A DNA stretch of 64,000 bases from Acidobacteriota bacterium. Its GTDB lineage: Bacteria > Acidobacteriota > UBA6911 > RPQK01 > JAJDTT01. Below the pieces are notes generated by a model. It worked only from the letters and a program-made list of their open reading frames with translations. It was not told the origin of the DNA and did not search any database. Of this stretch, positions 19,654 through 39,489 are shown piece after piece. Both the position numbers and the translations under genes were made by a program. Numbering within the stretch: the stretch's first letter is position 1; each line of letters starts with the position of its first letter. The stretch is taken from NCBI GenBank assembly GCA_965209055.1, contig OZ242374.1:4160001-4224000 (forward strand), in the 5' to 3' direction.

Positions 19654-20592
19654 CTACTCCGAATAGACCGGGTGGCTCAGGTAGCGTTCGCCCAGGTCGC
19701 AGACCATGGCGACGACGCGGGCGCCCCTCCCCAGCCTTCGGGCGACCTGGAGCGCGGCCCAGCAGTTGGAACCGGACGAGATACCCGCAAAGATGCCCTC
19801 TTTGCGGGCCAGGTCCCGGGTGACGAGGCGGGCGTCCTCGAAATCGACGTGGATGATCTCGTCGATGACGTTGCGATTCAGGACCGACGGGACGAATCCG
19901 GCTCCGATCCCCTGGATCTCGTGGGGACCCGGTTCGCCTCCCGCCAGCACGGGGGAGTCCGCCGGCTCGACGGCGACGATCAGGACGTTTCCCAATTCCT
20001 TTTTCAGGATCTCGCCCACTCCCGTGATGGTGCCTCCCGTTCCCACGCCCGCTACGAACGCATCCAACCTCCCGTCCGTCGCCTCCAGGATCTCCAGGGC
20101 CGTGGTGTGACGGTGAACCCGGGGATTGGCCGGGTTGTTGAACTGTTGCGGCATGTAGGCATCGGGGAGCCGGCTCACCAGTTCTTCCGCCTTGTCAATG
20201 GCGGCGGTCATCCCCCGGACCTCGGGGGTCAGGACCAGTTCGGCGCCCATGGCCTGAAGGACCCGTCTGCGTTCCATGGACATGGTGTCGGGCATGGTCA
20301 GGATCAACCGGTACCCCATGACGGCCGAGGCCATGGCCAGGCCGATCCCCGTGTTGCCGCTGGTGGGTTCGACGATGACGGTCTTTCCCGGTTGGATCCT
20401 GCCTTCGTCCTGGGCCTGCTTCAGCATGGCGTAGGCGATCCTGTCCTTGACGCTGAAGGAGGGATTCAGGGATTCCAGCTTCAACAGGACCTCGGCGGAT
20501 CCGGGACGAGTCAGGCGCTGGACCCGCACCAGCGGCGTGTTGCCGATCAGTTCGAGGATGTTGTCTGCCAGCAGGGGGCGGTGACGGGGCAT
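19654..20592 (-). CDS. cysK: Cysteine synthase A
   Basis: IGNTPLV, KLESLNPSFSVKDRIA, EPTSGNTGIGLA, QQFNNPAN, GVGTGGT, IQGIGAG, GERYLS. Confidence 0.93.
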   Translation of the reverse strand: MPRHRPLLADNILELIGNTPLVRVQRLTRPGSAEVLLKLESLNPSFSVKDRIAYAMLKQAQDEGRIQPGKTVIVEPTSGNTGIGLAMASAVMGYRLILTMPDTMSMERRRVLQAMGAELVLTPEVRGMTAAIDKAEELVSRLPDAYMPQQFNNPANPRVHRHTTALEILEATDGRLDAFVAGVGTGGTITGVGEILKKELGNVLIVAVEPADSPVLAGGEPGPHEIQGIGAGFVPSVLNRNVIDEIIHVDFEDARLVTRDLARKEGIFAGISSGSNCWAALQVARRLGRGARVVAMVCDLGERYLSHPVYSE

Positions 20593-20631
20593 GGGTAAAG
20601 TTGGATGACGGCCAACCGGCCAGCCCCGGGT

Positions 20632-22056
20632 TCAGGCCAGGATTTCGTGGACCACGCGGCCGTGGACGTCGGTCAGACTCTCGTCGCGGCCCCCGAATCG
20701 ATAGACCAGGCGCTCATGGTCCAGCCCCAGCAGATGCAGGATGGTGGCGTGCAGGTCGTGGACGGTGGTCTTGTTTTCCACCACGGTCTTGCCGATATCA
20801 TCGGTCCGGCCATACACGGTCCCCCCCTTGACTCCACCGCCGGCCATCCAGATGGTGAAGGCCGTCTCCAGATGGTCGCGTCCGTCTCCGTTGGTTCCGG
20901 TGTCCACCGTGCGGCCGAACTCGGTGCCCCAGATGACCAGCGTCTCATCCAACATTCCTCTGGACTTGAGGTCCTTGATCAGGGCGGCCACCGACTGATC
21001 CGCCACCAGGGCGTTCCCCTCATGTCCTTTCTTCAGGTTGGTGTGCTGGTCCCACGTGCCGTTGGTGGCGCCGAAAAGGACGGGCGGCGTCACCTCCACG
21101 AAACGGACGCCCGACTCGATCAGCCGCCGCGCCCGGAGGCATTGCAGGGCATAGTTCCGCTGGTCCTTGTTGGAGGTGTCCAGGCCGTAGAGCCGCTTGG
21201 TAGCTTCCGTTTCGCGAGACAGGTCCAGCACATCGGGGACGAGGGACTGCATCCGGTAGGCCATTTCGTAGTTTCGGATGGCCGACTCGACGGCGTCGTT
21301 TCTGCCGGCCTCGGCCAGAAAATCCCGATCCTGGTCCAGCAACACCGACAACTTGGTGTTCTGGATGGCGCCCTCGTCGGCGGGGACCAGGTTCTCGATG
21401 GGTGTCCCCTCCGCCTTTACAGGCAACGCCTGGTGGGTTGCGGGGAGGAAGCCGTTGGAGAAGTTCTCCAATCCTCCCGGCGGGATCGACGTGGCTTCAG
21501 GGTGGAGAAGGACGTATCCGGGCAGGTTCTTGTTCTCGCTCCCCAGCGCGTAGGTGATCCAGGATCCCAGACTCGGGTAACCGCCGACGTTGCGGCCGGT
21601 GTGGAAAAGGATGTTGCCGCGCGGGTGCAGCGGGAAGTTGGAGACCATGGAGCGAACAATGGCCAGATCATCCACGCAGGTGGCGAGGTGAGGAAAGAGC
21701 TCACTCACGGGGATCCCCGATTTCCCGTATTTCCTGAAGGTCCAGTGACAACCCTGATAGGTCCGGATCCCGTCGCCGGAGGGCTTGCCGTGCAACTCGT
21801 TCAGCTTGGGTTTGGGATCGAAGGTGTCCATCTGCGAGACACCGCCGGGCATGAAACAGAGGATGACGTTCTTGACCTTGGGCTCGAAATGGGTCGGTGG
21901 AGTCGGGACCAGACCAGCGTAGCCGTCTTCAGCCATGAGAGCGGACAGGGCGGTCAGTCCGAACCCGTTGGCGCTCAACGACAGCATCTGGCGCCGTGTC
22001 AGCGGAGCGCCGAGGCAACCCGGACAAAGGCCTTGTTCCTTGTTTTGCTGGGTCAT
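20632..22056 (-). CDS. DUF1501 domain protein (Tat-exported, sulfatase-like)
   Basis: TRRQML Tat motif, [46 protein letters not shown]. Confidence 0.88.
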   Translation of the reverse strand: MTQQNKEQGLCPGCLGAPLTRRQMLSLSANGFGLTALSALMAEDGYAGLVPTPPTHFEPKVKNVILCFMPGGVSQMDTFDPKPKLNELHGKPSGDGIRTYQGCHWTFRKYGKSGIPVSELFPHLATCVDDLAIVRSMVSNFPLHPRGNILFHTGRNVGGYPSLGSWITYALGSENKNLPGYVLLHPEATSIPPGGLENFSNGFLPATHQALPVKAEGTPIENLVPADEGAIQNTKLSVLLDQDRDFLAEAGRNDAVESAIRNYEMAYRMQSLVPDVLDLSRETEATKRLYGLDTSNKDQRNYALQCLRARRLIESGVRFVEVTPPVLFGATNGTWDQHTNLKKGHEGNALVADQSVAALIKDLKSRGMLDETLVIWGTEFGRTVDTGTNGDGRDHLETAFTIWMAGGGVKGGTVYGRTDDIGKTVVENKTTVHDLHATILHLLGLDHERLVYRFGGRDESLTDVHGRVVHEILA

Positions 22057-22060
22057 GGCA

Positions 22061-25000
22061 TTACCTCAGGTAGATGAACTCTTTCGTGTTGAAGAGACTG
22101 TGGGCCACGTCCTTCCAAATCACTTTGCTGGCCAGGATATGCTCTTGCGGAACCTGATACAAGCGTCCCAGCTTCCGGGCCAGCTCTCCGAAACGGGCCA
22201 CCTCTTCGGCACTCGGGGGCCGGGAGAACGCCTTGACAAACATTCGTTCCAAGCGTTCCTCCAGCGTCCCCCCTTCGTGTTCCAGAAGCCTGTCGGCCCA
22301 AAAATCCGCCTGTTGGATCACAAAGGGATCATTGAGCATGGCGAGAGCCTGGGAGGGCACGTTCGTCACGTCCCGACGCCCTCTGGAGACGGAGGGGACG
22401 GGAAAATCGAAGAGTTCCAGAAACCGGGGGCCCTCCATGCGGGTGACCCGCAGGTAAACGCTCCGGCGCCCGTGCCCGTCCAGTGGACCGGCGTGGAGCT
22501 TCCGGTACTCCTTCGTCTTCAGCCGATAGGGTTCGATGCTGGGACCGTAGCGCAAGGGATCGAAACGGCCCGAAGTGGCCAGAATAGAGTCACGTATGGC
22601 CTCGGCCTCAAGGCGCCGGACCGGGTAATGGTGCAGAAGCCGGTTCTCAGGGTCGATCCGCGGGGCTGCCTCGGACGCCCGGCTCGACTGTTGGAAAGCC
22701 TGGGTAAGGACCAGCCGCCGGACCAGCCGTTTCAGGGACCAACCGTCGGCGATGAACCGGTTCGCCAGATGGTCGAGTAGCTGGGCGTGGGAGGGACGCT
22801 CCCCGAAGTTGCCGAAGTCGTTGATTGTGGCTACCAGGCCTCGTCCGAAAAGGTAGTTCCAGACCCGGTTGACCATGACCCGTGCGGTGAGGGGGTTCCG
22901 GGGAGAGGCAATGAGACCCGCCAGCTCCTGCCGGCCGCTTCCGTTGGATTCGAGGGTCCGTCCCCCGGTGAGCGCGGTCAGGTAGCGGCGCGGTACGGGG
23001 TCCCCCGGATTCTCGGCGTCACCGCTTTTCAGCAGGGAATAGTCCCGCCCCGAACCCATGTCCAGCAACGAGTTGATGGTCTGGGGTTGAGAAATGCCGG
23101 ATTCGATGCCTCGGTACTCGGCAATCAATTGCGAGAGTCTGGGAGTGAGGTTGATGGAATTGTCCACCAGGTGGTTCGTTGCCAGCCAATGAATCCAGCG
23201 GACGTCGTTCTCGCTGGGGGCTCCCTGGGCCCACGCTTCAAGGGCCTGGCGGCTTCGCTCGGAATAGCGCCGGGCGGCTTCCAGGGGTTTCCGGGGAGCC
23301 GGATCTCGAAACAAGGGCAGCAAGTGGGACAGGTCTTTGTGGGGAGGTTCCTCCACGTCGTGGAGCATCGCCCGGGCAATGCCGAAATAGGATCCGGGCG
23401 CCGCCATCTTCTCCTCGGTGAATCCCTTGATTCTCTTTGGCCGGTCCGGGAGCCGGGGATTGCTGGTCTTGGTGACCAGCTCGACGTAGACGGGAAACCG
23501 CTCTTTGTCCTGAAGAGTCGAGATCTTCTGCCAGTTCAAGTCTGTGCTGTCGAAGACTTCGACGCCCTCGCCCAGCATGCAGTTGTCCACCACCGCCCGG
23601 CGCCCTCCCAGCATTCCACCCATGACCTGGAGACTGAGGAACTTCCTCTCCTTGGTCAGGTAGGGGGAGCGGAGCGCTCCGTTGAGCCGTTCCGATAGGG
23701 TATGCGTGTAGATTCCCGCCGGATAGACGCCGGAGACCGCCTCCGGTCCTTCCGGGGCCACGACGAATTCTCCGTTCTCCGATCGGCCTTCGAGCAATCC
23801 CACCCCCTCGGGGTACCAGTCGCTCAGAGACAGGGAAGTGAAGTTCTCCGTGTTATAGGCCTGGCGGTCGCGGATCTCTTTCAAGTGCTTCGGCGCAACC
23901 TTTTGCCACAGTGCCTGAAACCGTTCCGGCGCCAGCCCCCCTTCGCACGTGACCGTCGACCAGGGATAGAGAAAGCTTTCCGGATCGACGCTCTCCTTCT
24001 GGAGCGCCTGGATCCATCTTTCCAGGCGTTGGGGCTGGAGATCCGGGCCGGCATCCGCCGACTTCAGATCGACCGGGGCCTGTGCCGCCAGGAGATAGGC
24101 CGGAATCTCCTCGACCTGCTTCAACCAGGCCTCAGCCAGCTCCGAGCGAATCTGCGGCTTCAGGGCCCGCAGGCGCTGCATCAACGGAGACTGGGAACCA
24201 CCCGTGTCCAGCGTGCTGGTGACCGGACGGGCACTGTTCAGGATCCCGTACAGTGCGTAGTAGTCTTCGATGGGAATGGGATCCAGCTTGTGGTCGTGAC
24301 AGCGCGCGCAGGCCACGGAGAGTCCCTGGAAGGCCCGGGTGAGGGTGTCGATCTGGTCGTCCACGACATCGGTGCGTATTTCGCGGAACTCGATGCAGTC
24401 GTCGTGCCCCATTTCACCCATGAGGAGGAATGCCGAACCGGTGGCGGATTCGTTGATTCCCAGCGGGACGTTGATCCGGGGGTCTTCCAGCAGGTCGCCG
24501 GCGACATGTTCCCTTACCAGTTGATCGTAGGGGACGTCCTGGTTGAAGGCGCGGATCAGGTAGTCGCGGTAGCGCCAGGCGCCCTTGACGATGTAGTTCC
24601 ACTCGTATCCGTAGGTCTCGGCGAAACGCACCACGTCCATCCAGTGACGCGCCCAATGTTCCCCGAAGTGGGGAGAATCCAGGAGACGGTCCACGAAGTT
24701 GGCGTAGGCCTGCCCGGACCGGTCCCGGAGCAGCTCTTCCACGCTGGCCGGATCCGGCGGCAGTCCCACGACCGAGAAACTGAGGCGCCGGGCCAGGGTA
24801 CGGAGATCGGCCCGCTCCGCCGGCTCCAGTCCCTCCTTGCGGAGCGCCGCCAGCAGAAAGCGATCGACCGGTGTTCCGGACCAGCTCTGATGATCCACCT
24901 GCGGAGGTTCGGGATCGGCAACCGGCTGGAAGGCCCAGTGCTCCCGGGTCAGGCGGGCGTAAAAATCGGGTTCGTTGGTCACGTCGGGAACCGCGGGCCA

Positions 25001-25561
25001 CGGGGCTCCCATCCGGACCCAGCTCTCCAAGTGATCGATCTCGGCGTCGGCGAGCATGCGGCCCAGGGGCATCTTCAGGTCCTGATGCCGGACGGCCTGG
25101 ATGATCAGGCTCCGGTCCGGATCACCGGGAACCAGAGCGGACCCTCGAAGACCACCCTTCATGAGGGCTTCGCGGGAATCGACTCTGAGTGAGGAGAGCT
25201 GCTGATTGCCGCCATGGCAGGAGTAGCAGTTTTCGACCAAGAGAGGACGGACCTTGGTTTCGAAGAACTCCATGGCCTCGCGGTCGCCTTTGGCGCCGGA
25301 TGGCGCCGGCACAAGGGAGCGGCCATTGGCGAGGACCAGGAACGGCAGCAGAAACAGAATCGCCAAGAGGCGGAGCCTGAGGTTTGGAATCGCGATGGTA
25401 CAGGGAATCAGCACGTTTCGTACCCGCGCCCAAACGATAGCATATCTTTCTGTCTTCGACGCACTTTGCCGGCGTTGGATCAACAACTTGCACGAGATCC
25501 CGGCAGCGCCGGTTTGCGCTGCCGCCGGTGTTCGGATAGGGTCTCGATGCTGTGTAGTCAA
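22061..25561 (-). CDS. Planctomycete cytochrome c / DUF1549 / DUF1553 (PSCyt1/2, PSD1) protein; true start probably about 150-200 nt downstream
   Basis: FFETKVRPLLVENCYSCHG, HWAFQP, GEHWARHWMDVVRFAE, CARCHDHK, NPLTARVMVNRVW, RRLEAEAIRD. Confidence 0.88.
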   Translation of the reverse strand: MTTQHRDPIRTPAAAQTGAAGISCKLLIQRRQSASKTERYAIVWARVRNVLIPCTIAIPNLRLRLLAILFLLPFLVLANGRSLVPAPSGAKGDREAMEFFETKVRPLLVENCYSCHGGNQQLSSLRVDSREALMKGGLRGSALVPGDPDRSLIIQAVRHQDLKMPLGRMLADAEIDHLESWVRMGAPWPAVPDVTNEPDFYARLTREHWAFQPVADPEPPQVDHQSWSGTPVDRFLLAALRKEGLEPAERADLRTLARRLSFSVVGLPPDPASVEELLRDRSGQAYANFVDRLLDSPHFGEHWARHWMDVVRFAETYGYEWNYIVKGAWRYRDYLIRAFNQDVPYDQLVREHVAGDLLEDPRINVPLGINESATGSAFLLMGEMGHDDCIEFREIRTDVVDDQIDTLTRAFQGLSVACARCHDHKLDPIPIEDYYALYGILNSARPVTSTLDTGGSQSPLMQRLRALKPQIRSELAEAWLKQVEEIPAYLLAAQAPVDLKSADAGPDLQPQRLERWIQALQKESVDPESFLYPWSTVTCEGGLAPERFQALWQKVAPKHLKEIRDRQAYNTENFTSLSLSDWYPEGVGLLEGRSENGEFVVAPEGPEAVSGVYPAGIYTHTLSERLNGALRSPYLTKERKFLSLQVMGGMLGGRRAVVDNCMLGEGVEVFDSTDLNWQKISTLQDKERFPVYVELVTKTSNPRLPDRPKRIKGFTEEKMAAPGSYFGIARAMLHDVEEPPHKDLSHLLPLFRDPAPRKPLEAARRYSERSRQALEAWAQGAPSENDVRWIHWLATNHLVDNSINLTPRLSQLIAEYRGIESGISQPQTINSLLDMGSGRDYSLLKSGDAENPGDPVPRRYLTALTGGRTLESNGSGRQELAGLIASPRNPLTARVMVNRVWNYLFGRGLVATINDFGNFGERPSHAQLLDHLANRFIADGWSLKRLVRRLVLTQAFQQSSRASEAAPRIDPENRLLHHYPVRRLEAEAIRDSILATSGRFDPLRYGPSIEPYRLKTKEYRKLHAGPLDGHGRRSVYLRVTRMEGPRFLELFDFPVPSVSRGRRDVTNVPSQALAMLNDPFVIQQADFWADRLLEHEGGTLEERLERMFVKAFSRPPSAEEVARFGELARKLGRLYQVPQEHILASKVIWKDVAHSLFNTKEFIYLR

Positions 25562-29734: not shown

Positions 29735-32539
29735 TTGAAGCTCCATTCAGCACCAAAATCCGCACGGGGGATCCCCTCGGCTCGCCGACATCCGGGTTGG
29801 CCCCCCGCTGTTCTCCTGCTGGGTCTTCTTGCCTCACTCCCCGTTCTGGGGGAAGTCGAGCTGGACAAAGCCGAACTGGAACAGACCGAGGAACTCTCCG
29901 AGTCCCTGGCCAACTCTCTCCTGGAATTCTCGGTGACGGTCCGGGAACGGGACCTGAAGCGGATCGGCGAGTTCTTCGAGTCCCCGTCCCGGGTGACGCC
30001 GTGGCCGGCTCTTTCCGGTGTCCCGGCTTCGGAGTTCAAATGGATCTCGACTGCCGCGCCCCGCGTCACGCGCAAGCGTCCGAAGAAGGTGCCCCGGACC
30101 GGACTGGTGAAGAGCTGGGAGAAGTTCCTGGAGTCCTTCTCATCCGTCGAGGATGCCCGTTTTCAGGTCAAGGGGGCCCGCTTCAGGCAACGGAGGGCGA
30201 AAGTCGAGGGCAAGGGGGATCTCAAGTTCTTCCTGATCGGGCGTGACGGAAAGAGCCATCGATTCTGGGTGAAGGGAACGGGCCGGCTGGTCGCGGTCCA
30301 AACCGGGGAGGAGAAGTGGCAAATCTCCGAATTCCAACTGGACGAGGTCAAGACCATGCGCGCGTCCGCGGACCTCTTCTCCGAGGTCTGTATCCCGGCG
30401 GGAGTTTCCAATTCGCTGCCACGGTACGGCGAACCGGGAAACGATGATTTCGTCTATCACGGCGCCGCTACGGGAGACCTGAACCAGGACGGGCTGCAGG
30501 ACCTGGTGGTCACGGGCATCAACCGGAACTACCTCTACCTGAACCAGGGCGGCCGGTTTCAGGACGTGGCCGACAAAGCGGGGATCTCGATCACCCCGCC
30601 GGGCACGGCGCCGCTGCTCCTCGACTACGACAACGACGGCGACCTGGACGTCTTCATGGCCTCGGTGGGAGAGCAGATGCTGTTCGAGAACCGCCTTGTG
30701 CCGTCCGGGAGACTGCTCTTCTTCGACATCTCGCAAGAGGTCGGCATCGCGGTGAACGCCATCGGTTTCAGCGCCACCGCCGGTGATGTGAACAAGGACG
30801 GCTGGACCGACGTCTACGTTGCCTCCTACAACCGCTACGGCCGGGTCATGCCCGACTCCTGGCACCGCGCCTCCAACGGGACTCCGAACCTGCTCTTCCT
30901 GAATCAAGGGAATGGAAGCTTCCGGGAAGCGGGGGCCGCGTGGGGTGTCCGCGACCAGCGCTGGAGCTATGCCGCCCAGTTCGCCGACATCAACGGAGAC
31001 GGACGGCTGGATCTCTACGTGGCCAACGACTTCGGCGAGAACGGCTACTACGTGAACCTGGGAGACCGCTTCGAGGACCGGGCCACGAGCATGGGGCTGC
31101 TGGACCCCGGCAATGGAATGGGTGTTTCCTTCGGCGACTTCAACAACGACGGGCGGATCGACCTCTACGTCACCAACATGTCCTCGACGGCCGGGAACCG
31201 GATCCTGGACCGGCTGTTCCCGCAGGGCCGGGGAGACCGGAGCGGACTCAAGAAGCTGGCCGCCGGCAACACGTTGTTCGAAGGAGTGGACGGGGGCGGC
31301 TTTCGGGACGTGAGCGGCAAATTCGGACCCTTCGTTGCCGGATGGGCCTGGGGCGGGGTCTTCGTGGACTTCGACAACGACGGATGGGAGGACCTCTACT
31401 CTCCCAACGGGTTCATCAGCGGCAAGTCCATGAAGGACACATGAAGCTTCTTCTGGCGCCACGTCGTGGCGTCCACGGTCGGCGACGAGAAGGCCGGCAA
31501 CCAGGATTACCAGACGAACCACATGGCTCTGCTCTTCGAGCAGGGGCTGTCCTTCAGCGGATTCGAACGGGACGCCCTGTTCCTGAACCGTGAGGGCACC
31601 CGGTTTCAGGACATTTCAGGCGTCTCGGGCATCGACTCCATCTCCGACGGACGCTCGGCCGTTCCCGTCGACCTGGACAACGACGGCGACCTGGACATCT
31701 TTCTCACCACCATCCAGGGCGAAGGTCATCTCCTGTTCCGCAACAACGTGGGCCAGGACAAGGGCTTCATTCGCGTCGAGCTGGAGGGGACGAAGAGCGG
31801 CAAGGACGCATTCGGCGCCCAGGTCCGGGTGAAGACTCCCCTGGGGGTCCAGACCCGGATCCTCTCGGGGGGAAGCGGTTTCATGGCTCAACCCGACCGG
31901 CGGCTCCTGTTCGGACTGGGGGAGACCAAGGAGGCGGAATGGTTGGAGGTGACCTGGCCCTCCGGTGTTCGCCAGCGGGTCGGTCCCATTCCCGCCGGCA
32001 CCTCCTTGAAGCTGGTGGAGGAGGAACCGGACTACCAGGCCCTGTCCCTGCCGTCGGCCGCTTTGCCGGATCCCCTGGAGGAGGAACAGGTCCTCTGGAG
32101 CAAGCTGGAGATCAAACGGGGCCTGCCCATGCCCGAGCTGGCGCTGAAGACGCTTCCGGAGGGAGAGGAGGTCTCGCTTCCGCTGGAGAAGGGAACGTCG
32201 TACCTGCTGAATCTCTGGGCCACCTGGTGCGGGCCGTGCCGGCGGGAGATGCCTGAGTTGGAAGCGGCCAAGGCCAAGCTGGAAGAGAACGGCATCCAGG
32301 TGATCGGTCTCAGTCTCGACCAGGGGGTTCCCCTCTCAGACGTGGAATCATATGCCCGAGACTTGGGCGTGTCCTATCCGGTCTACCTGCTGGAACAGGA
32401 GGATCTGAAGAAGATCTTCGCGGGAGACGAGATGTTCGTCCCGTTCTCGATCCTGGTGGACGAGGAAGGCCGGGTCGCCGACAGCACCGCCGGTTGGGGA
32501 GAAGAGGCCAAACGCAAGCTGGATCGCCTTTGCCGGTAG
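29735..32539 (+). CDS. FG-GAP (CRTAC1-like) + ASPIC/UnbV + TlpA-like thioredoxin fusion with in-frame UGA at 31442-31444 (candidate selenoprotein, 934 aa)
   Basis: ORFs 29735-31444 and 31466-32539 are in the same frame, separated only by TGA (GKSMKDT*SFFWRHVVAST). FG-GAP repeats continue on both sides; UnbV-like GGSGFMAQ...LLFGLG...LEVTWPSG; C-terminal NLWATWCGPCRREMP; SECIS-like hairpin after the UGA. Confidence 0.75.
31454..31475 (+). promoter_or_regulatory. Putative bacterial SECIS element
   Basis: tggcgccac-GTC-gtggcg(t)cca: 9-bp stem with one bulged U; apical loop begins with GU, with 18 nt between the UGA and the loop. Confidence 0.6.
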
Positions 32540-32863: not shown

Positions 32864-34600
32864 ATGCCGAACGCCCTTCTCCTCTACCCGAAGCACCCAC
32901 CCACCTACTGGGGCAACGATTACGCCTTGGACATCATGGGAATCAAATCGACACATCCGCCACTCGGCCTGCTCACCGTCGCCGCGATGTTCCCATCCCG
33001 GTACAACTTGCGCCTGGTCGACCTCAATGTGACTTCGCTCGAAGACACCGACTTGAAGTGGGCGGATCTCGTGTTCACATCGAGCATGATTCCGCAACGC
33101 CCCTCCCTCGAGCAGGTCGTTGAGCGCTGCAACCGCGCGCAGGTTCCCGTCGTTGCCGGCGGGCCGCATCCCACCACGTTTCATGAGGAAATGGAAGGCA
33201 TAGATCATTTCGTACTCGATGAGGTGGAGGAGATCTTTCCTGGATTCCTTCGCGACCTGGAAACCGGCACGGCCAAACCGGTCTACCGAGCCCCGAGGAA
33301 ACCGGATGTGACCCTGTCCCCGGTTCCCCGTTTCGACCTCATCAATATGAACGAGTATTACTCGATGTCCCTGCAGTTCTCCCGGGGATGTCCCTTCGAT
33401 TGCGAGTTTTGCGACATTACGAAGCTGTACGGCCGTGTGTCCCGAACGAAATCACCGGAACAGATGGTGGCCGAGTTCGACCAATTGTACGAGTTGGGCT
33501 GGCGGGGTCCGCTTTTTCTGGTCGATGACAACTTCATTGGCAACAAACGGGAAGTTTCAAGGCTTCTCCCTGTGATCGCCGAATGGCAAAAGGAGCATCG
33601 CTATCCCTATACACTGACCACCGAAGCGACCGTCAATCTCGTTCGGATGAACGACTTGATGGATGTCATGATCGAGGCTGGCTTCGAATCCGTCTTCATC
33701 GGCATCGAAACGCCCAACCCGGCGGCTCTCAAGAAGATGAAGAAGCCTCAGAACATCGACATGCGCGACGACAACTACTTGCTCACGGCTGTGCGCAAGA
33801 TTCAACAGAAGGGGATGCATGTTCTGGGCGGCTTCATCCTCGGCCTGGACGAAGACGATGAGAACGCGTTTGACGCCCAGATCGAATTCATTCAGGCAGC
33901 CGGGATTCCGATCTCACTGATCGGGTTGCTGACCGCACTCAAGGGAACCAACCTGTGGGACCGGCTGGAGCGCGAGAATCGGCTGTTGAACAAACCTGTC
34001 GAGATCGACGACACTGCCCTGAACTTCAAGCCGCAGATGGATCCCGGGGTATTGGTGGAAGGGTATCTCCGGGTCATCAGGACCATCTACGATGCAACGT
34101 TGGAGAACTATTTCGACCGCTGCCTGACCCTGCTCGACAACCTCAACCCCGTACCACACGTCTACAAGCCGGTAAGCAACCACATACTCTTGGCGGGAAT
34201 CATGCGGATCCGACGGCGCCTGACGCCGGAGCAGTTGCCGCCGTTTTCGCGCTATATCGCCCAAGTCTCCAGGAATCATCCTCGATTCCTGCTGCTCGCA
34301 ATCCGTCTGGCCGGCATGGGTCATCACTGCGAAAAATTCACGCGCCAGCAGACCGTTCTCCGTGGCTTCAAGGAGTACTTGAAATCAGAGTTGGCATCAT
34401 TCAATGAAGCCGGATGGGAGTCTGAATCGGCGCCGGGAATGCAGGACGAGTTCAGACAGGAGATGCTGAAACACGCAAATGCGCGCCAGAAGGCCATCCC
34501 CGATGAATTCCGTTTTTACGGGGACGGCATCTCCGAGGCTCTGACGGCTTTCCAGCATGCGTTGAGTCCGGAGGCTCCGTTGGCCTTGCCGGTCAAGTAG
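32864..34600 (+). CDS. B12-binding-domain radical SAM protein (class B methyltransferase-like, DUF4070-type C-terminus)
   Basis: PPLGLLTVAA, VAGGPHPT, SRGCPFDCEFCDI (CxxxCxxC), FLVDDNFIGN, VFIGIETP. Confidence 0.88.
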   Translation: MPNALLLYPKHPPTYWGNDYALDIMGIKSTHPPLGLLTVAAMFPSRYNLRLVDLNVTSLEDTDLKWADLVFTSSMIPQRPSLEQVVERCNRAQVPVVAGGPHPTTFHEEMEGIDHFVLDEVEEIFPGFLRDLETGTAKPVYRAPRKPDVTLSPVPRFDLINMNEYYSMSLQFSRGCPFDCEFCDITKLYGRVSRTKSPEQMVAEFDQLYELGWRGPLFLVDDNFIGNKREVSRLLPVIAEWQKEHRYPYTLTTEATVNLVRMNDLMDVMIEAGFESVFIGIETPNPAALKKMKKPQNIDMRDDNYLLTAVRKIQQKGMHVLGGFILGLDEDDENAFDAQIEFIQAAGIPISLIGLLTALKGTNLWDRLERENRLLNKPVEIDDTALNFKPQMDPGVLVEGYLRVIRTIYDATLENYFDRCLTLLDNLNPVPHVYKPVSNHILLAGIMRIRRRLTPEQLPPFSRYIAQVSRNHPRFLLLAIRLAGMGHHCEKFTRQQTVLRGFKEYLKSELASFNEAGWESESAPGMQDEFRQEMLKHANARQKAIPDEFRFYGDGISEALTAFQHALSPEAPLALPVK

Positions 34601-34731: not shown

Positions 34732-36183
34732 CTATGCGAGCAGCTTGTCCACCACGTGGCCGCCCACGTCCGTGAGGCGGAATTGGCGTCCCTGGAACTT
34801 GTAGACCAGCCGGGTATGGTCCAGACCCAGCAGATGGAGAATGGTTGCGTGCATATCGTGCATGTGGATGGGATCTTCCACGATATCGAATCCCAACTCG
34901 TCGGTCTTGCCCACGGTGGTTCCCGGCTTGGTGCCGCCGCCGGCCATCCACATGGTGAATGCGTACGGATGATGGTCTCGTCCCGGATACTTTCCGGGAT
35001 GCTCGTTCATGGGAGTCCGGCCGAATTCGCCGCCCCAGACCACCAGTGTGTCCTCCAGCAGGCCCCGGTCTTTCAGGTCCTTCACCAGGGCGGCTGAGGC
35101 CTGGTCGATCTCCAGGCAGCGGGTCTGCAACCCCTCCTTGTGGATGATGGACCCCGAGGCGATCAGTCCGTGGTGGTCCCATCCGTGGTGATAGAGCTGG
35201 ACGAAGCGGACGCCCCGCTCCACCAGGCGCCGGGCCAGGAGGCAGTTGTTGGCGAAGGATTCCTTTCCCGGCTCGGTCCCGTACATGCGGTGGATGTGCT
35301 CCGGTTCGCCGTTGATGTCCATCAGTTCGGGGACACTGGTCTGCATCCGGTAGGCCAATTCGTAGGAGGCGATGCGGGTCAGGATCTCCGGATCCCCCAC
35401 GGCCTCGTATTGCCGTTGATTGAGCTTCTTCAGAGTGTCAAGCGATTGGCGGCGAGCCTTGCGGGTCATCCATTCGGGATCGGACAAGAAAAGTACCGGA
35501 TCGCCCTGGGACCGGAACTGGACTCCCTGGTAGACGGTGGGAAGGAATGCAGGACCCCAGCACGAATTGCCGGCGAAGACCTCCACCGGACCCGATTGCA
35601 GGACCACGAAGCCCGGGAGGTCGCGGTTCTCGCTGCCCAGCCCGTAGGTCAGCCACGAACCCATGCTGGGCCGGCCGATGAGATGGTGCCCCGTGTTCAT
35701 GAACAATTGTGCCGGAGCGTGGTTGAACTGCTCCGCGTGGACCGACTTGACGATGGTCAGGTCGTCCACGACCTCGGCGAGGTGGGGCAGCAACTCCGAG
35801 ACCTCGCCCCCCGACTCACCGTATTGACCGAAAGAGTAGGGAGAAGCCAAGGCCTGAGGCGTCCCTCGCAAGAAGGCGAACCGTTTGCCGTCCAGCGTTC
35901 CCTCCGCGACGTTCTGGCCGTCCATTTCCGTGAGCCGCGGCTTGTTGTCGAACATGTCGAGCTGAGAAGGACCGCCCGACATGAAAAGGAAGATAACGTT
36001 CTTGGCCTTGGGTTCGAAGTGCCCCGCTTTCGGCGCCATGGGATGGCGGGCATCCGGGGCGGGCGCCGACAATAGCCGGTCGTCCAACATTCCGGCCAGG
36101 GCGATGGAACCGATGCTCATCCCTCCCCGGAAGAAAAAGTGACGGCGGGTGACGGCTTTCAAAAACTCCTGTCGGCTGTTCAT
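34732..36183 (-). CDS. DUF1501 domain protein
   Basis: TRRHFF Tat motif, [43 protein letters not shown]. Confidence 0.88.
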
Positions 36184-36202
36184 GGGTGCCTTTTCCTGGG
36201 AC

Positions 36203-39200
36203 TCACGGTCGCGAGATGGTTTCATCCAAATTCAGGAGTACCTGAGCCACACTGGTCCAGGCCATGAAATCTCCGGTTTCCGCCTTCTCGCGCGCTTTTC
36301 CCGCATCCGGAGCGGATCCGGACAGGTTCTGCATTTGAAGCCGATAGAGGGCGGTCAGATCCTGAAGCTCTCCTGGTGACGGCCGGCGACCGACACTAAG
36401 GCGAAATCCGTGGGAGATCCGGTCGGCCGTTTCCGGACCCGTTTCCGAGATCATGCGGTGGGCCAGTCCCCGGGCGGCTTCCAGAAAGGTCTGGTCGTTC
36501 ATCAAGTTCAGCGCCTGCAGCGGCGTATTGGACCGGCTGCGGGCCACGCACGTGGACTCACGGCTGGGAGCGTCGAAATTGGCATAGAAGGGATAGGGAC
36601 GAATCCGCTTCAGGAAAGTGTAGAGTCCCCGCCGGTAGCGGTCGTCACCGCGACCCGTGATCCAGGTGTCCGCCACGTACAGGTTGTCCCAGAGCCCCTT
36701 GGGCTGAGGCGGAAAGACACTGGGACCGTAAGGCCTCAGACTGAGGAGTCCTGCGGTGCTCAGCGCGCTGTCCCGAATCATTTCGGCATCCATCCGGAAG
36801 CGCGGCCCACGGGCGTAGAACTGGTTGGAGGGGTCCTTTTCCCGCAGGACCTCTCCCATGCGGGAATCTTGACGATAGGTCGCCGATGTGACCATCAGAC
36901 GATGCATGGTCTTCATGGACCAATTCTGATCCACGAACTCGGTGGCGAGCCAATCCAGAAGCTCCGGATGCGTGGGTCGGTCGCCCTGCGTCCCCAGGTT
37001 TTCCGGCGTCGTGACCAGTGGCCGGCCGAAATGATCGGCCCAGAGCCGATTCATGGTGACCCGTCCCACCAGGGGGTTCTCCGGCGAGACGAGCCAGCGG
37101 GCCAGGGTCAGGCGATTGGGCGGCGTGTCGCTCTCGGGCAAGGCATGGAGCACCGAGGGGACGCCCGGATGGACCTCCTTGCCCGGGTCCAAAAAACTTC
37201 CCTTGACAAACAGATGGGTGGTCCGGGGCTTCTCCAGCTCCTTCATGACCAGGCTATTGGGCGAGGTCAACTGCTTCCAGAAGGCCAGAAGCTCGGAGAG
37301 CCGTTGCCGTTTCGGCGTCAGCAGGGGGGCAAAGCCGCGATAGTAGTCGTTCAGGATCCGGCGTTGGACCTCGGTCCTCCGGACGGGGGGAACGGCCAGG
37401 ACGCGTTCTGCCCGCGTCGGGAGCTTGACGTTCCGGGCCGGGTCCTGATCCCGGGTCACGGAAAAACGAAAACGGCCGATTGTTTTGCCCGGCTTCTCTC
37501 CCTCATGTCTCAGGCGGATGGTAAACCGGGTTCCACCCGAAAAGCCCAAGGGAGACTCGGACAGGAAAATGGCCTGGCGTTCGACCCTGTTCTCTTGCTT
37601 GGTCCCGCTGTTGGACCAGCCGGTGGTGGGGTCGCCGTCCAGGGCGCGGCGAATTCCCATGGTAACGGGATCGATCTCGGCCGCGGCGCCGCTGAACGCC
37701 ACCGGTGAGGAGGATCCCGAGGCGGCCAGAGGCTCCGCCACCACTTCAAACTCGGTCAAAATGAACTCCCCGTCGGAACTCCGGCTGGACCCGCCGTGGG
37801 GCAGGCTGGGATCCGTCAGGGTCTCCAGACGGATGGCGGTGATTCCCTCGACGTGGGTCTCGGTCACGACCACAAACGTTTCGCGCCCCGGCTTCGGTCC
37901 GGAAGCCAGCAGGGCACCGTCCCCCTGAAGGGTCAGTTCCGCGCCGCCCAGGGAGAAGTAGGTGACCGGATCCAGATCGCTCCAGGAGACCATCTCCGTG
38001 GCCGTTTGCGTCTCCCATTGAGTCCGCGCCGCCTCCAACTCCGGCGTGGAACGTTTCAATGCAGCCTTCAGCTCCACGATCTCCCGCTCGATTTCGGAGC
38101 GGTGAGAGGACAGATAGTCGGCGGGAGGCAGGGTGATGCTGGCGTTCTGCGGCCGGACCTTCGTCTTCGGGTTGTTCTCCTCCATCGTGTTGTTGAAGAA
38201 GGCGTACATCCCGAAGTACTCCTCCTGGGTGATGGGATCGTACTTGTGATCGTGGCACTGGGCGCAGGCAATGGTGCTCCCGAGCCAGACGGTTCCGGTG
38301 GTCTCGACCCGGTCCAGGATGGCCGCTACCCGGTACTCCTCCGGGTCGGTGCCACCCTCGGTGTTGATCATGGTGTTGCGGTGGAATCCGGTGGCGATCT
38401 TCTGCTCGGGAGTGGCGTCGGTCAGCAGGTCCCCCGCGATCTGCTCGATGGTGAACTGGTCGAAGGGCATGTCGGAGCTGATGGCCTTGATCACCCAATC
38501 GCGATAGAGCCACATGTTGCGCCGCCGGTCGTGGATGTAGCCGTTGGTGTCGGCATATCGGGCCAGGTCCAGCCAGGGCCGGGCCCAGCGCTCTCCGTAG
38601 CGGGGCGAGGCCAGGAGCCGGTCGACGAGTCGCTCGTAGGCCAGCGGACGCCGATCCTCGACGAAGGCGTCCACTTCCTCGGGAGTCGGCGGAAGCCCGA
38701 TGAGATCCAGGGTCACGCGGCGGATCAAGGTCTCCCGCGAGGCTTCCGGGGACGGCTCCAGGCCTTCCCGTTCCAACCGCTCCAGGACGAAGCGGTCGAT
38801 GGCATTGCGGACCCGGGACATATCTTTGACCTTCGGAAGGGAAGGACGGACCGGATTGACATAGGCCCAGTGCTTCTTGACGCCGTCGCCGGTTCCATCG
38901 ATGGCCTCGGTCCAGGGGGCTCCCTGGTCCAGCCAAGTCCGGATCATCTCGACCTGGTCGCGGGGCAGGGTACCTGTGAGAGGCATGGGAGACCCCGGGG
39001 CGTCGCCGACGATCTTCCGGTAGAGGAGGCTCGAGGAACCGTCGCCGGGAAGGATGGCCGGTCCGGACTGGCCCCCCTTCAGGGCCGCCTCCCGGGTATC
39101 CAGGCGAAGACCGTTCATGCTCTGGTCGGCGCCGTGGCACTGGTTGCAGCTGGCCTCGAGGATGGGGCGGATGTCGCGGGCGAAGTCGACGTCCCGGTCC

Positions 39201-39307
39201 GCGGAGGGCGGCGGGCCCGATCCGCTCATCAGGGCGACGGTGCTCATAATGCTGAGCACAAAGAGAGATGCCCAGGTTTGGAGCCTTCGGACTGGTGTCC
39301 AGCGCAT
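36203..39307 (-). CDS. Planctomycete cytochrome c / DUF1549 / DUF1553 protein
   Basis: [65 protein letters not shown]. Confidence 0.88.
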
Positions 39308-39489
39308 ACGCCAACCTCGATTCGGGGTGTCGCACGAGTATATCAACCCAGGGCGAGTATCGTCGCCAGGAGGAGGGACTGTTAGTCCCCCGTCTTCTTT
39401 TGCGCGTAATATCTTGAGGTTTCCCAAACCGGAACAGCGGGGGTAGGAAAACTCCGGCTCCCATTAGACAATAGGGAGAGGTTTCGACC

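Follow-up and report, generated by a model that had tools for sequence, protein, structure and literature searches.

Layout of the gene and its product

The 64,000-nucleotide stretch analyzed here (the window; positions 4,160,001 to 4,224,000 of contig OZ242374.1, Acidobacteriota bacterium assembly GCA_965209055.1) contains on its + strand a reading frame that runs from a TTG at 29735 to a TAG at 32537–32539. All coordinates below are positions within the window, unless stated otherwise. The frame is 934 codons in length and is open except for a TGA at 31442–31444, which is codon 570 (KSMKDT-TGA-SFFWRHVV; upstream peptide, NGFISGKSMKDT). As a first-pass annotation of this DNA had noted, two open reading frames (ORFs) in the same frame, 29735..31444 (569 amino acids, TTG start) and 31466..32539, are parted only by this TGA. 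The best explanation, at a probability of roughly 0.85, is that the two ORFs constitute one gene, which would encode an exported 934-residue selenoprotein with UGA 570 recoded as selenocysteine (Sec). The TTG at 29735 is the sole start in the frame. The GTG of the second ORF, at 31466, sits within the 3' arm of a hairpin described below, and no GGAG- or AGGA-type ribosome-binding site was seen by eye in the 25 nucleotides (nt) before it, in keeping with the earlier remark that this ORF has no convincing ribosome-binding site and begins inside the hairpin.

Pfam was run on the read-through product, and all of the domains listed are above their cut-offs. FG-GAP_3 is found in six stretches (2.8e-40), together with FG-GAP, and is followed by UnbV_ASPIC (residues 692–758; 8e-17; 61.3 bits against a cut-off of 23.4) and by Redoxin (52.1 bits) or AhpC-TSA (51.5 bits) at residues 796–920. 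The FG-GAP repeats and UnbV_ASPIC together span the UGA, as the first reading of the sequence had it. An AlphaFold2 model built on a 44-row alignment (predicted local distance difference test (pLDDT), 90.9; predicted template-modeling score, 0.89) shows an N-terminal α+β domain, a propeller, an UnbV domain, and a thioredoxin fold. The best Foldseek match to this model is murine CRTAC1 (9etn_A; E 2.4e-27; template-modeling (TM) score 0.74 on the target), and the C-terminal domain is matched by ResA (4nmu) and TlpA (1jfu), with which sequence matches agree. Comparison shows the product to be one propeller chain of the CRTAC1 type, in which both halves contribute to a single propeller as they do in single-chain CRTAC1; this answers the earlier concern that the halves might be translated separately.

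Residue 570 had been placed in a loop of the propeller. In the model it is instead the first residue of an α-helix (570–582) in a two-helix insert. The WCGPC motif of the C-terminal TlpA-type domain is present as reported, and its cysteines, C832 and C835, lie at the start of helix 833–851, the first helix of the thioredoxin fold, as expected of a thioredoxin-fold redox domain. The only cysteine or Sec residues in the protein are C219, U570, C832, C835, and C933, and near the Sec site no further clustering of conserved Cys or His was apparent. Among 22 orthologues examined, a hydrophobic signal- or lipobox-like N-terminus was evident by eye in all 17 in which the stretch could be displayed; five lacked an anchoring motif. 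The protein is therefore predicted to be exported.

Table. Features of the gene and of its predicted product
Feature	Position in window	Strand	Basis
Whole gene, one in-frame UGA, TTG start, TAG stop	29735..32539	+	Exactly one TGA in 23/23 full-length orthologue rows
Predicted N-terminal export signal, basic stretch followed by hydrophobic AVLLLGLLASLPVLG	29735..29851	+	Residues 1–39 at low pLDDT; cleavage site guessed
N-terminal α+β domain, residues ~45–210	29867..30364	+	High-pLDDT secondary structure; no Pfam match
FG-GAP β-propeller with DxDxDG calcium-type motifs, spans UGA	30452..31744	+	FG-GAP_3 2.8e-40; murine CRTAC1 9etn_A
UGA, predicted to be read as Sec, residue 570	31442..31444	+	Aligned column shared by 81/81 locus records; Sec-decoding genes present
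Two-helix insert between propeller blades, helices 570–582 and 590–602, Sec first residue	31442..31540	+	DSSP on model; pLDDT blocks 89–95
Putative selenocysteine insertion sequence (SECIS) hairpin	31455..31473	+	Helix 31455–31462 with 31466–31473; loop GUC 31463–31465; within published bacterial SECIS constraints
Conserved hairpin core	31456–31461 with 31467–31472	+	Comparative alignment, six pairs
UnbV_ASPIC domain, residues 692–758	31808..32008	+	Pfam 8e-17
TlpA/ResA-like thioredoxin-fold domain, residues 796–920	32120..32494	+	Redoxin/AhpC-TSA; ResA 4nmu, TlpA 1jfu
CGPC redox motif, C832 and C835	32228..32239	+	CxxC here in 70/75 evaluable Sec forms

Conservation of the UGA and the adjoining hairpin

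All 81 related locus records, down to ~35% identity, have the TGA at the same alignment column, hereafter the Sec column. These records consist of 37 loci from relatives and 44 named loci, and represent 79 distinct places, as two were fetched twice. Within the order, 40 relatives were searched, and full-length rows come from 23 of the order's 41 genomes. Each of the 23 full-length orthologue rows (100–53% identity) has exactly one TGA, as does each of 14 rows of a paralogue clade at 35–39% identity; the latter includes a second copy in the same genome as the window. In the loci extracted from relatives and aligned, the TGA is at the aligned column in 37/37. The scan of named loci, with one genome per species, returned 80, of which 48 have an S-x-x-W-R motif. 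TGA is at the column in 44 of these 48, the others having S, D, N, and N. The 44 belong to Acidobacteriota (Vicinamibacteria, Pyrinomonadaceae, Holophagales, and Bryobacterales), Planctomycetota (Pirellulaceae), and Verrucomicrobiota (Roseibacillus and Akkermansiaceae). In an evenly drawn sample of 401 Acidobacteriota genomes, counted by hand and with the unpublished G016 and G182 among the rows, a match was found in 99, with TGA in 45 of 46 best rows and 29 of 54 next rows. At least one TGA form occurs in ~62 of the 401, or about 15%.

The second copy in the same genome (C1:754964-759058, outside the window) is ~1360 residues in length and has the same Sec column and hairpin. It is composed, in order, of a membrane anchor, a propeller, UnbV, an AhpC/TSA-Redoxin domain with WCPPC, and ~330 residues of tetratricopeptide (TPR) repeats; these ~330 extra residues beyond the thioredoxin-like domain are found in the paralogue clade. 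A same-genus copy of the paralogue lies at L079:994-5193. At a locus from a metagenome-assembled genome of the Planctomycetales (L075), the TGA and hairpin are present and the frame is open for just 95 codons before and 91 codons after; this locus may be a broken copy or may contain further in-frame stops.

The hairpin, GGCGCCAC-GUC-GUGGCGUC(C), begins 10 nt after the UGA and has its loop G (31463) 18 nt after the UGA. A stem-loop with an apical loop beginning GU at this distance had been proposed at 31454–31475, and we locate it at 31455–31473. The bacterial SECIS (bSECIS) model specifies a loop of 3–9 nt, a stem of 4–16 base pairs (bp), a G in the first two loop positions, a distance of 16–37 nt from the UGA, and a minimum free energy (MFE) of at most -7.5 kcal/mol (PMC13188914, Fig. 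2 legend). With its GUC loop, 8 bp, 18-nt spacing, and MFE of -13.2 kcal/mol, the hairpin lies within every one of these limits, so that the first-pass view of it as a fit to the general bacterial model holds.

Taken singly, the sequence does not stand out. The fold of a 59-nt piece is ordinary (MFE z = -1.25), with 22 of 200 shuffles folding equally well; the minimum-energy structure of this piece is an alternative fold and not the hairpin; and an Rfam scan of 31300–31650 gave no match at E up to 10. Because single-sequence folding was insignificant and picked another fold, comparative analysis was used instead. Nearly all of 66 distinct 48-nt stretches following the UGA fold into a hairpin at the same place, with GUC, GGUCG, AGUUG, or GGUC loops; in divergent members the stem sequences differ, and the GGUC-type loop and the distance are retained. 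Covariation was assessed on a gap-free alignment of 60 sequences (56 distinct), with 500 shuffles and slid controls. The 8-bp helix has 81.9% of cells paired versus 74.2% when shuffled, and the covariation score is 0.265 versus 0.108 when shuffled; neither value was reached by any of the 500 shuffles, and every slid control had a lower covariation score. RNAalifold independently predicts the same six core pairs, all of which are present in 47 of the 56 distinct sequences, as compared to 1.8% under uniform synonymous recoding. Pair 18–28 (GU 17, CG 14, AU 10, GC 8, UA 6, other 1) joins the third base of an Arg codon to the first base of the codon that lies three codons downstream, and the synonymous site here appears to track amino acid change. 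Of the two third codon positions within the stem, one is G in 54/56 and the other in 49/56; the third position in the loop varies. In homologues having a sense codon and a similar SxxWR-type motif, the six pairs occur in 0/4 and 1/20, even though several of these controls share an identical SFFWRQVV peptide. The hairpin at 31455–31473 is, on this comparative evidence, most probably a SECIS.

Comparison across three phyla thus shows a UGA that, with its position and its hairpin, appears to be held by selection. Homologues had been proposed earlier as a test for a recent nonsense change; they have the same UGA along with a covarying hairpin, and a few have Cys at the column. A recent nonsense mutation, a pseudogene, or an assembly error has nothing in its favor beyond the bare stop, and with both halves open and conserved, and with the same TGA in 81/81 related records down to ~35% identity, we regard this explanation as refuted.

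A different possibility is that the UGA is a true stop and that a 569-residue N-terminal part is accompanied by a C-terminal part restarted at GTG 31466, with the hairpin serving to couple termination to reinitiation. Such a scheme would agree with the conservation of the GTG, 21 nt after the stop, and with the way gene callers divide the gene: by hand count, about 96 of the best 120 protein-database matches are fragments that end at the stop and cover 40–43% of the query region. However, the division would cut the propeller between blades, whereas relatives with a sense codon are single chains, and the GTG, besides having no ribosome-binding site before it, encodes Val within the 3' arm of the stem. 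In its loop and spacing the hairpin agrees with the SelB-type model, and it decays when the codon is not TGA, which a reinitiation signal does not explain. With Sec-decoding genes also present in the ~62 carriers checked (see below), reinitiation seems highly improbable.

Probable selenocysteine decoding and a possible redox relay

The genome from which the window derives has tRNA-Sec (68.9 bits; ARAGORN anticodon tca), selA (541.5 bits), selD (299.6 bits), and selB, all above curated cut-offs. The first-pass annotation had called for a search for selA, selB, selC, and selD, and the outcome is a genome equipped to decode Sec. Its selD has no in-frame stop. Among the ~62 sampled genomes with a TGA form, selA was found in 58, and the other four (G009, G341, G117, and G279) have tRNA-Sec and selB. 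Co-occurrence with selA discriminates poorly, because 300 of the 401 sampled Acidobacteriota genomes have selA anyway. In the relatives G009, G012, G341, G117, and G279, selA was not found, and tRNA-Sec, selB, and an intact TGA-form gene are present; a selA gene there may lie in an assembly gap, may have been missed by the search, or may encode a divergent SelA.

Other uses of selenium were looked for in the same genome. A Sec-type formate dehydrogenase (FdhA) was not found, the best match (132 bits) being without an in-frame stop. Two crude and narrow scripts, one for a UGA plus hairpin and the other for UxxC/CxxU-type contexts, were applied together with Pfam on five candidates; beyond the gene and its paralogue, these narrow screens, which do not amount to a selenoproteome, yielded no convincing selenoprotein gene. 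One site flagged by the crude screen, at 19657-22065 (-) in the window, consists of a DUF1501 gene ending in TGA and, after it in the same frame, a cysteine-synthase-like (PALP) gene. These look like two ordinary genes and not a recoding site.

The conservation of the frame and hairpin is by itself silent on which residue is inserted, and the hairpin could conceivably stimulate near-cognate decoding of the UGA (as Trp, Cys, or Gly) in a programmed read-through that involves no selenium. We consider this very unlikely. The loop, stem, spacing, and energy of the hairpin all accord with the bacterial SECIS model, and the decoding genes are present both in this genome and in the carriers. Further, the UGA has been kept over three phyla though a one-base change would give Cys or Trp, which indicates that the residue matters, and CxxC is lost along with the UGA. 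Insertion of Sec at UGA 570 is, from these sequence comparisons, very probable.

The CxxC motif provides a further connection. In 70 of the 75 TGA records (of 81) that could be evaluated, CxxC occurs 250–305 residues after Sec; among the other five, three have U-x-C and no thioredoxin domain, and two have neither. The divergent members without a thioredoxin domain (L133, L134, L142, and L061) have a Cys two residues after Sec, and this U-x-C fits the same need for a resolving thiol. In two others (L096 and L099), a Cys directly precedes Sec (C-U) in addition to CxxC. A tree of 97 rows was constructed by a quick method without a mixture model; two rows could not be evaluated and were left out. 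Both major clades in it are mostly Sec, with non-Sec forms nested inside and eight state changes. CxxC accompanies Sec in 68 of 71 rows and Cys in 3 of 5, and 4 of the 19 remaining rows have it as well. The 20 non-TGA homologues that were fetched have S, N, Y, E, N, Q, N, A, N, S, C, A, S, A, E, G, L, G, D, and E at the column. A thioredoxin-like domain is kept in 15 of these 20, and both of its cysteines in 2 of the 15; the rest comprise seven with A/S-x-x-C, one with C-x-x-K, and five with neither. The joint occurrence and loss of Sec and CxxC suggests a Sec-thioredoxin redox relay, to the extent that sequence can indicate one.

In such a relay, SelB carrying Sec-tRNA(Sec) would bind the hairpin at 31455–31473, Sec would be inserted at codon 570, and the ribosome would go on to translate the remaining propeller, followed by the UnbV and thioredoxin-fold domains. 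Catalytic Cys or Sec residues often cap a helix in thioredoxin-fold enzymes, and Sec570, which caps the N-terminus of a helix carried by the propeller, may be the reactive redox center, acting as a nucleophile. Reaction with an oxidized substrate or peroxide would produce a selenenylsulfide, which the tethered TlpA-like CGPC motif would resolve. TlpA-like proteins receive electrons for their CxxC from a transporter in the membrane, and a membrane thiol-electron transporter could likewise re-reduce CGPC in the periplasm. We slightly favor a relay of this kind between Sec570 and CGPC.

Several observations weigh against parts of this account. Database homologues have S, L, V, T, E, A, Q, I, N, or R at the Sec column. 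Cys is rare there, with five cases among 24 full-length homologues from the database and one among 20 non-TGA loci that were fetched, six in all, and other residues are commoner, with Ser in 8 of the 24. The association of Sec or Cys with CxxC comes down to just six independent pairs, of which ~4.5 are concordant and none opposite (p ~0.06). CxxC is retained without Sec or Cys in P0003 (L), P0005 (V), P0006 (S), P0036 (Q), L156 (Y), L157 (E), and L165 (A), and Sec may therefore not be what the thioredoxin domain serves. In addition, selA was not found in 4 of the ~62 genomes with a TGA form. Lastly, the neighboring genes (DUF2442, a methyltransferase, a B12-radical S-adenosylmethionine (SAM) gene, and PSCyt/DUF1501 pairs) show no functional link; conservation of the neighbors was not examined.

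The protein may then be a selenoprotein whose Sec stands outside any relay, binding a metal or metalloid or acting as a lone nucleophile, with the TlpA-like domain acting on a separate client. The homologues that keep CxxC opposite a non-redox residue, and the frequency of Ser at the column, are what such an arrangement would predict. Against it are the occurrence of Sec together with an intact CxxC in 70/75 and the loss of the two mostly together, the U-x-C of forms without a thioredoxin domain, and the lack of any other conserved Cys or His cluster seen near the site; we judge it unlikely, though a serious contender. The earlier proposal that Sec is recycled by the fused thioredoxin thus stands in part: joint loss of Sec and CxxC speaks for it, and CxxC also persists where the column has L, V, S, Q, Y, E, or A, which speaks against it.

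Around the gene, a B12-binding radical SAM protein with DUF4070 is encoded 325 nt downstream on the same strand (32864-34600 (+)). Two PSCyt1/PSCyt2/PSD1 (DUF1549/DUF1553) genes each adjoin a DUF1501 gene (22061-25561 (-) with 20632-22056 (-), and 36203-39427 (-) with 34732-36225 (-)), a pairing typical of Planctomycetes-like genomes. Three RNA-library contigs, from three studies, bridge the position of the UGA (31001-31568, 31036-31672, and 31286-31596); they are 5–9% unlike the window and hence from relatives, and as contigs they cannot prove transcription or reveal decoding. Public runs containing 30800-32100 of the window or close relatives are labelled as sponge, marine, or coral-reef metagenomes (labels only).

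Relation to known proteins and selenoproteins

The first-pass annotation knew of no characterized selenoprotein with this architecture, and the printed record bears this out as far as it goes. Table 1 of a 2026 review lists 119 prokaryotic selenoprotein families and subfamilies, among which there is no FG-GAP, ASPIC/UnbV, or CRTAC1 entry (PMC13188914). The main text of deep-Sep, of BSepDB, and of the 2016 Planctomycetes paper was searched and yielded no mention of FG-GAP or ASPIC, and the supplements of these works (S9 of PMC4807772; deep-Sep Table S2) could list the family; "propeller" does not occur in the main text of deep-Sep or BSepDB, nor VCBS in the main text of the 2016 Planctomycetes paper. 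A literature search returned nothing relevant linking selenoproteins to FG-GAP or CRTAC1, selenocysteine to UnbV or VCBS, or SECIS to a propeller. NCBIfam release 20 has no model for the propeller part, and only the thioredoxin part was matched, far below equivalog cut-offs. Homologues in the database are named as CRTAC1 family, FG-GAP-like, VCBS, peroxiredoxin, or thiol-disulfide isomerase, and none as a selenoprotein. The propeller-thioredoxin selenoprotein appears from its sequence to be a new family, decoded in what is presumably the ordinary bacterial way. Since gene callers report two ORFs in place of this gene wherever it is present, naming the family would mend annotation in many soil, marine, and sponge-associated genomes.

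Taken together, the evidence can be read, tentatively and with some doubt, as revealing an ancient, widespread, and uncatalogued family of exported selenoproteins, in which Sec, and not Cys, is the dominant state, and in which Sec is carried on a CRTAC1-type propeller, outside the thioredoxin fold, in a built-in relay with a tethered TlpA-like CxxC. In genomes such as this one, where a Sec-type formate dehydrogenase was not found, the two copies may be a main reason for keeping the costly Sec machinery. The family may also help explain the retention of this machinery in so many Acidobacteriota.

Murine CRTAC1 (Protein Data Bank 9etn) is the best match by sequence (E 2.2e-48) as well as by fold, and likewise has an FG-GAP propeller followed by an UnbV_ASPIC domain. 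Unlike the gene product, CRTAC1 has no Sec, no thioredoxin-fold domain, and no N-terminal α+β domain, and the Sec-bearing region of the gene product (residues 540–632) is unaligned to it by sequence. To our knowledge, bacterial members of the CRTAC1/ASPIC-UnbV family have no known function; a Sec residue would offer the first testable chemical handle on this large and functionally uncharacterized bacterial family. In the SECIS of Escherichia coli fdhF, the hairpin occurs ~10–11 nt after the UGA and has G-U in a small apical loop. The hairpin here is at a similar distance and has a G-U apical loop, which is GGUC-like in many members, but its stem is shorter than in the fdhF type.

The TlpA, ResA, and CcmG oxidoreductases share with the gene product a thioredoxin fold, a W-C-x-P-C motif, and export. 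These are small anchored proteins, whereas the domain found here forms the C-terminal part of a chain of 934 residues. The NCBIfam equivalog cut-offs are missed (66.2 against 170 for the ResA subfamily and 61.2 against 230 for TlpA), indicating a TlpA-like domain rather than an orthologue. The score against NF041054, which tests for WAxxUGC or UGC-type TlpA proteins, is 38.9, below the cut-off of 300.

Known thioredoxin-fold periplasmic selenoproteins resemble the gene product in exported redox function, in Sec, and in a bacterial SECIS right after the UGA; those catalogued include a UGC-containing TlpA family, WAxxUGC proteins, and a UxxC thiol:disulfide interchange protein (PMC13188914). In these UGC-type TlpA, WAxxUGC, and UxxC proteins, Sec replaces a Cys within CxxC, whereas here the WCGPC motif is all-Cys and Sec is 262 residues upstream, in an insert of the propeller. 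Most prokaryotic selenoproteins to date are thioredoxin-like or have Sec in a short redox motif (PMC13188914). In contrast to most of these, Sec in the protein described here would be located in a propeller insert, and its resolving thiols, if the relay operates, would come from a fused domain.

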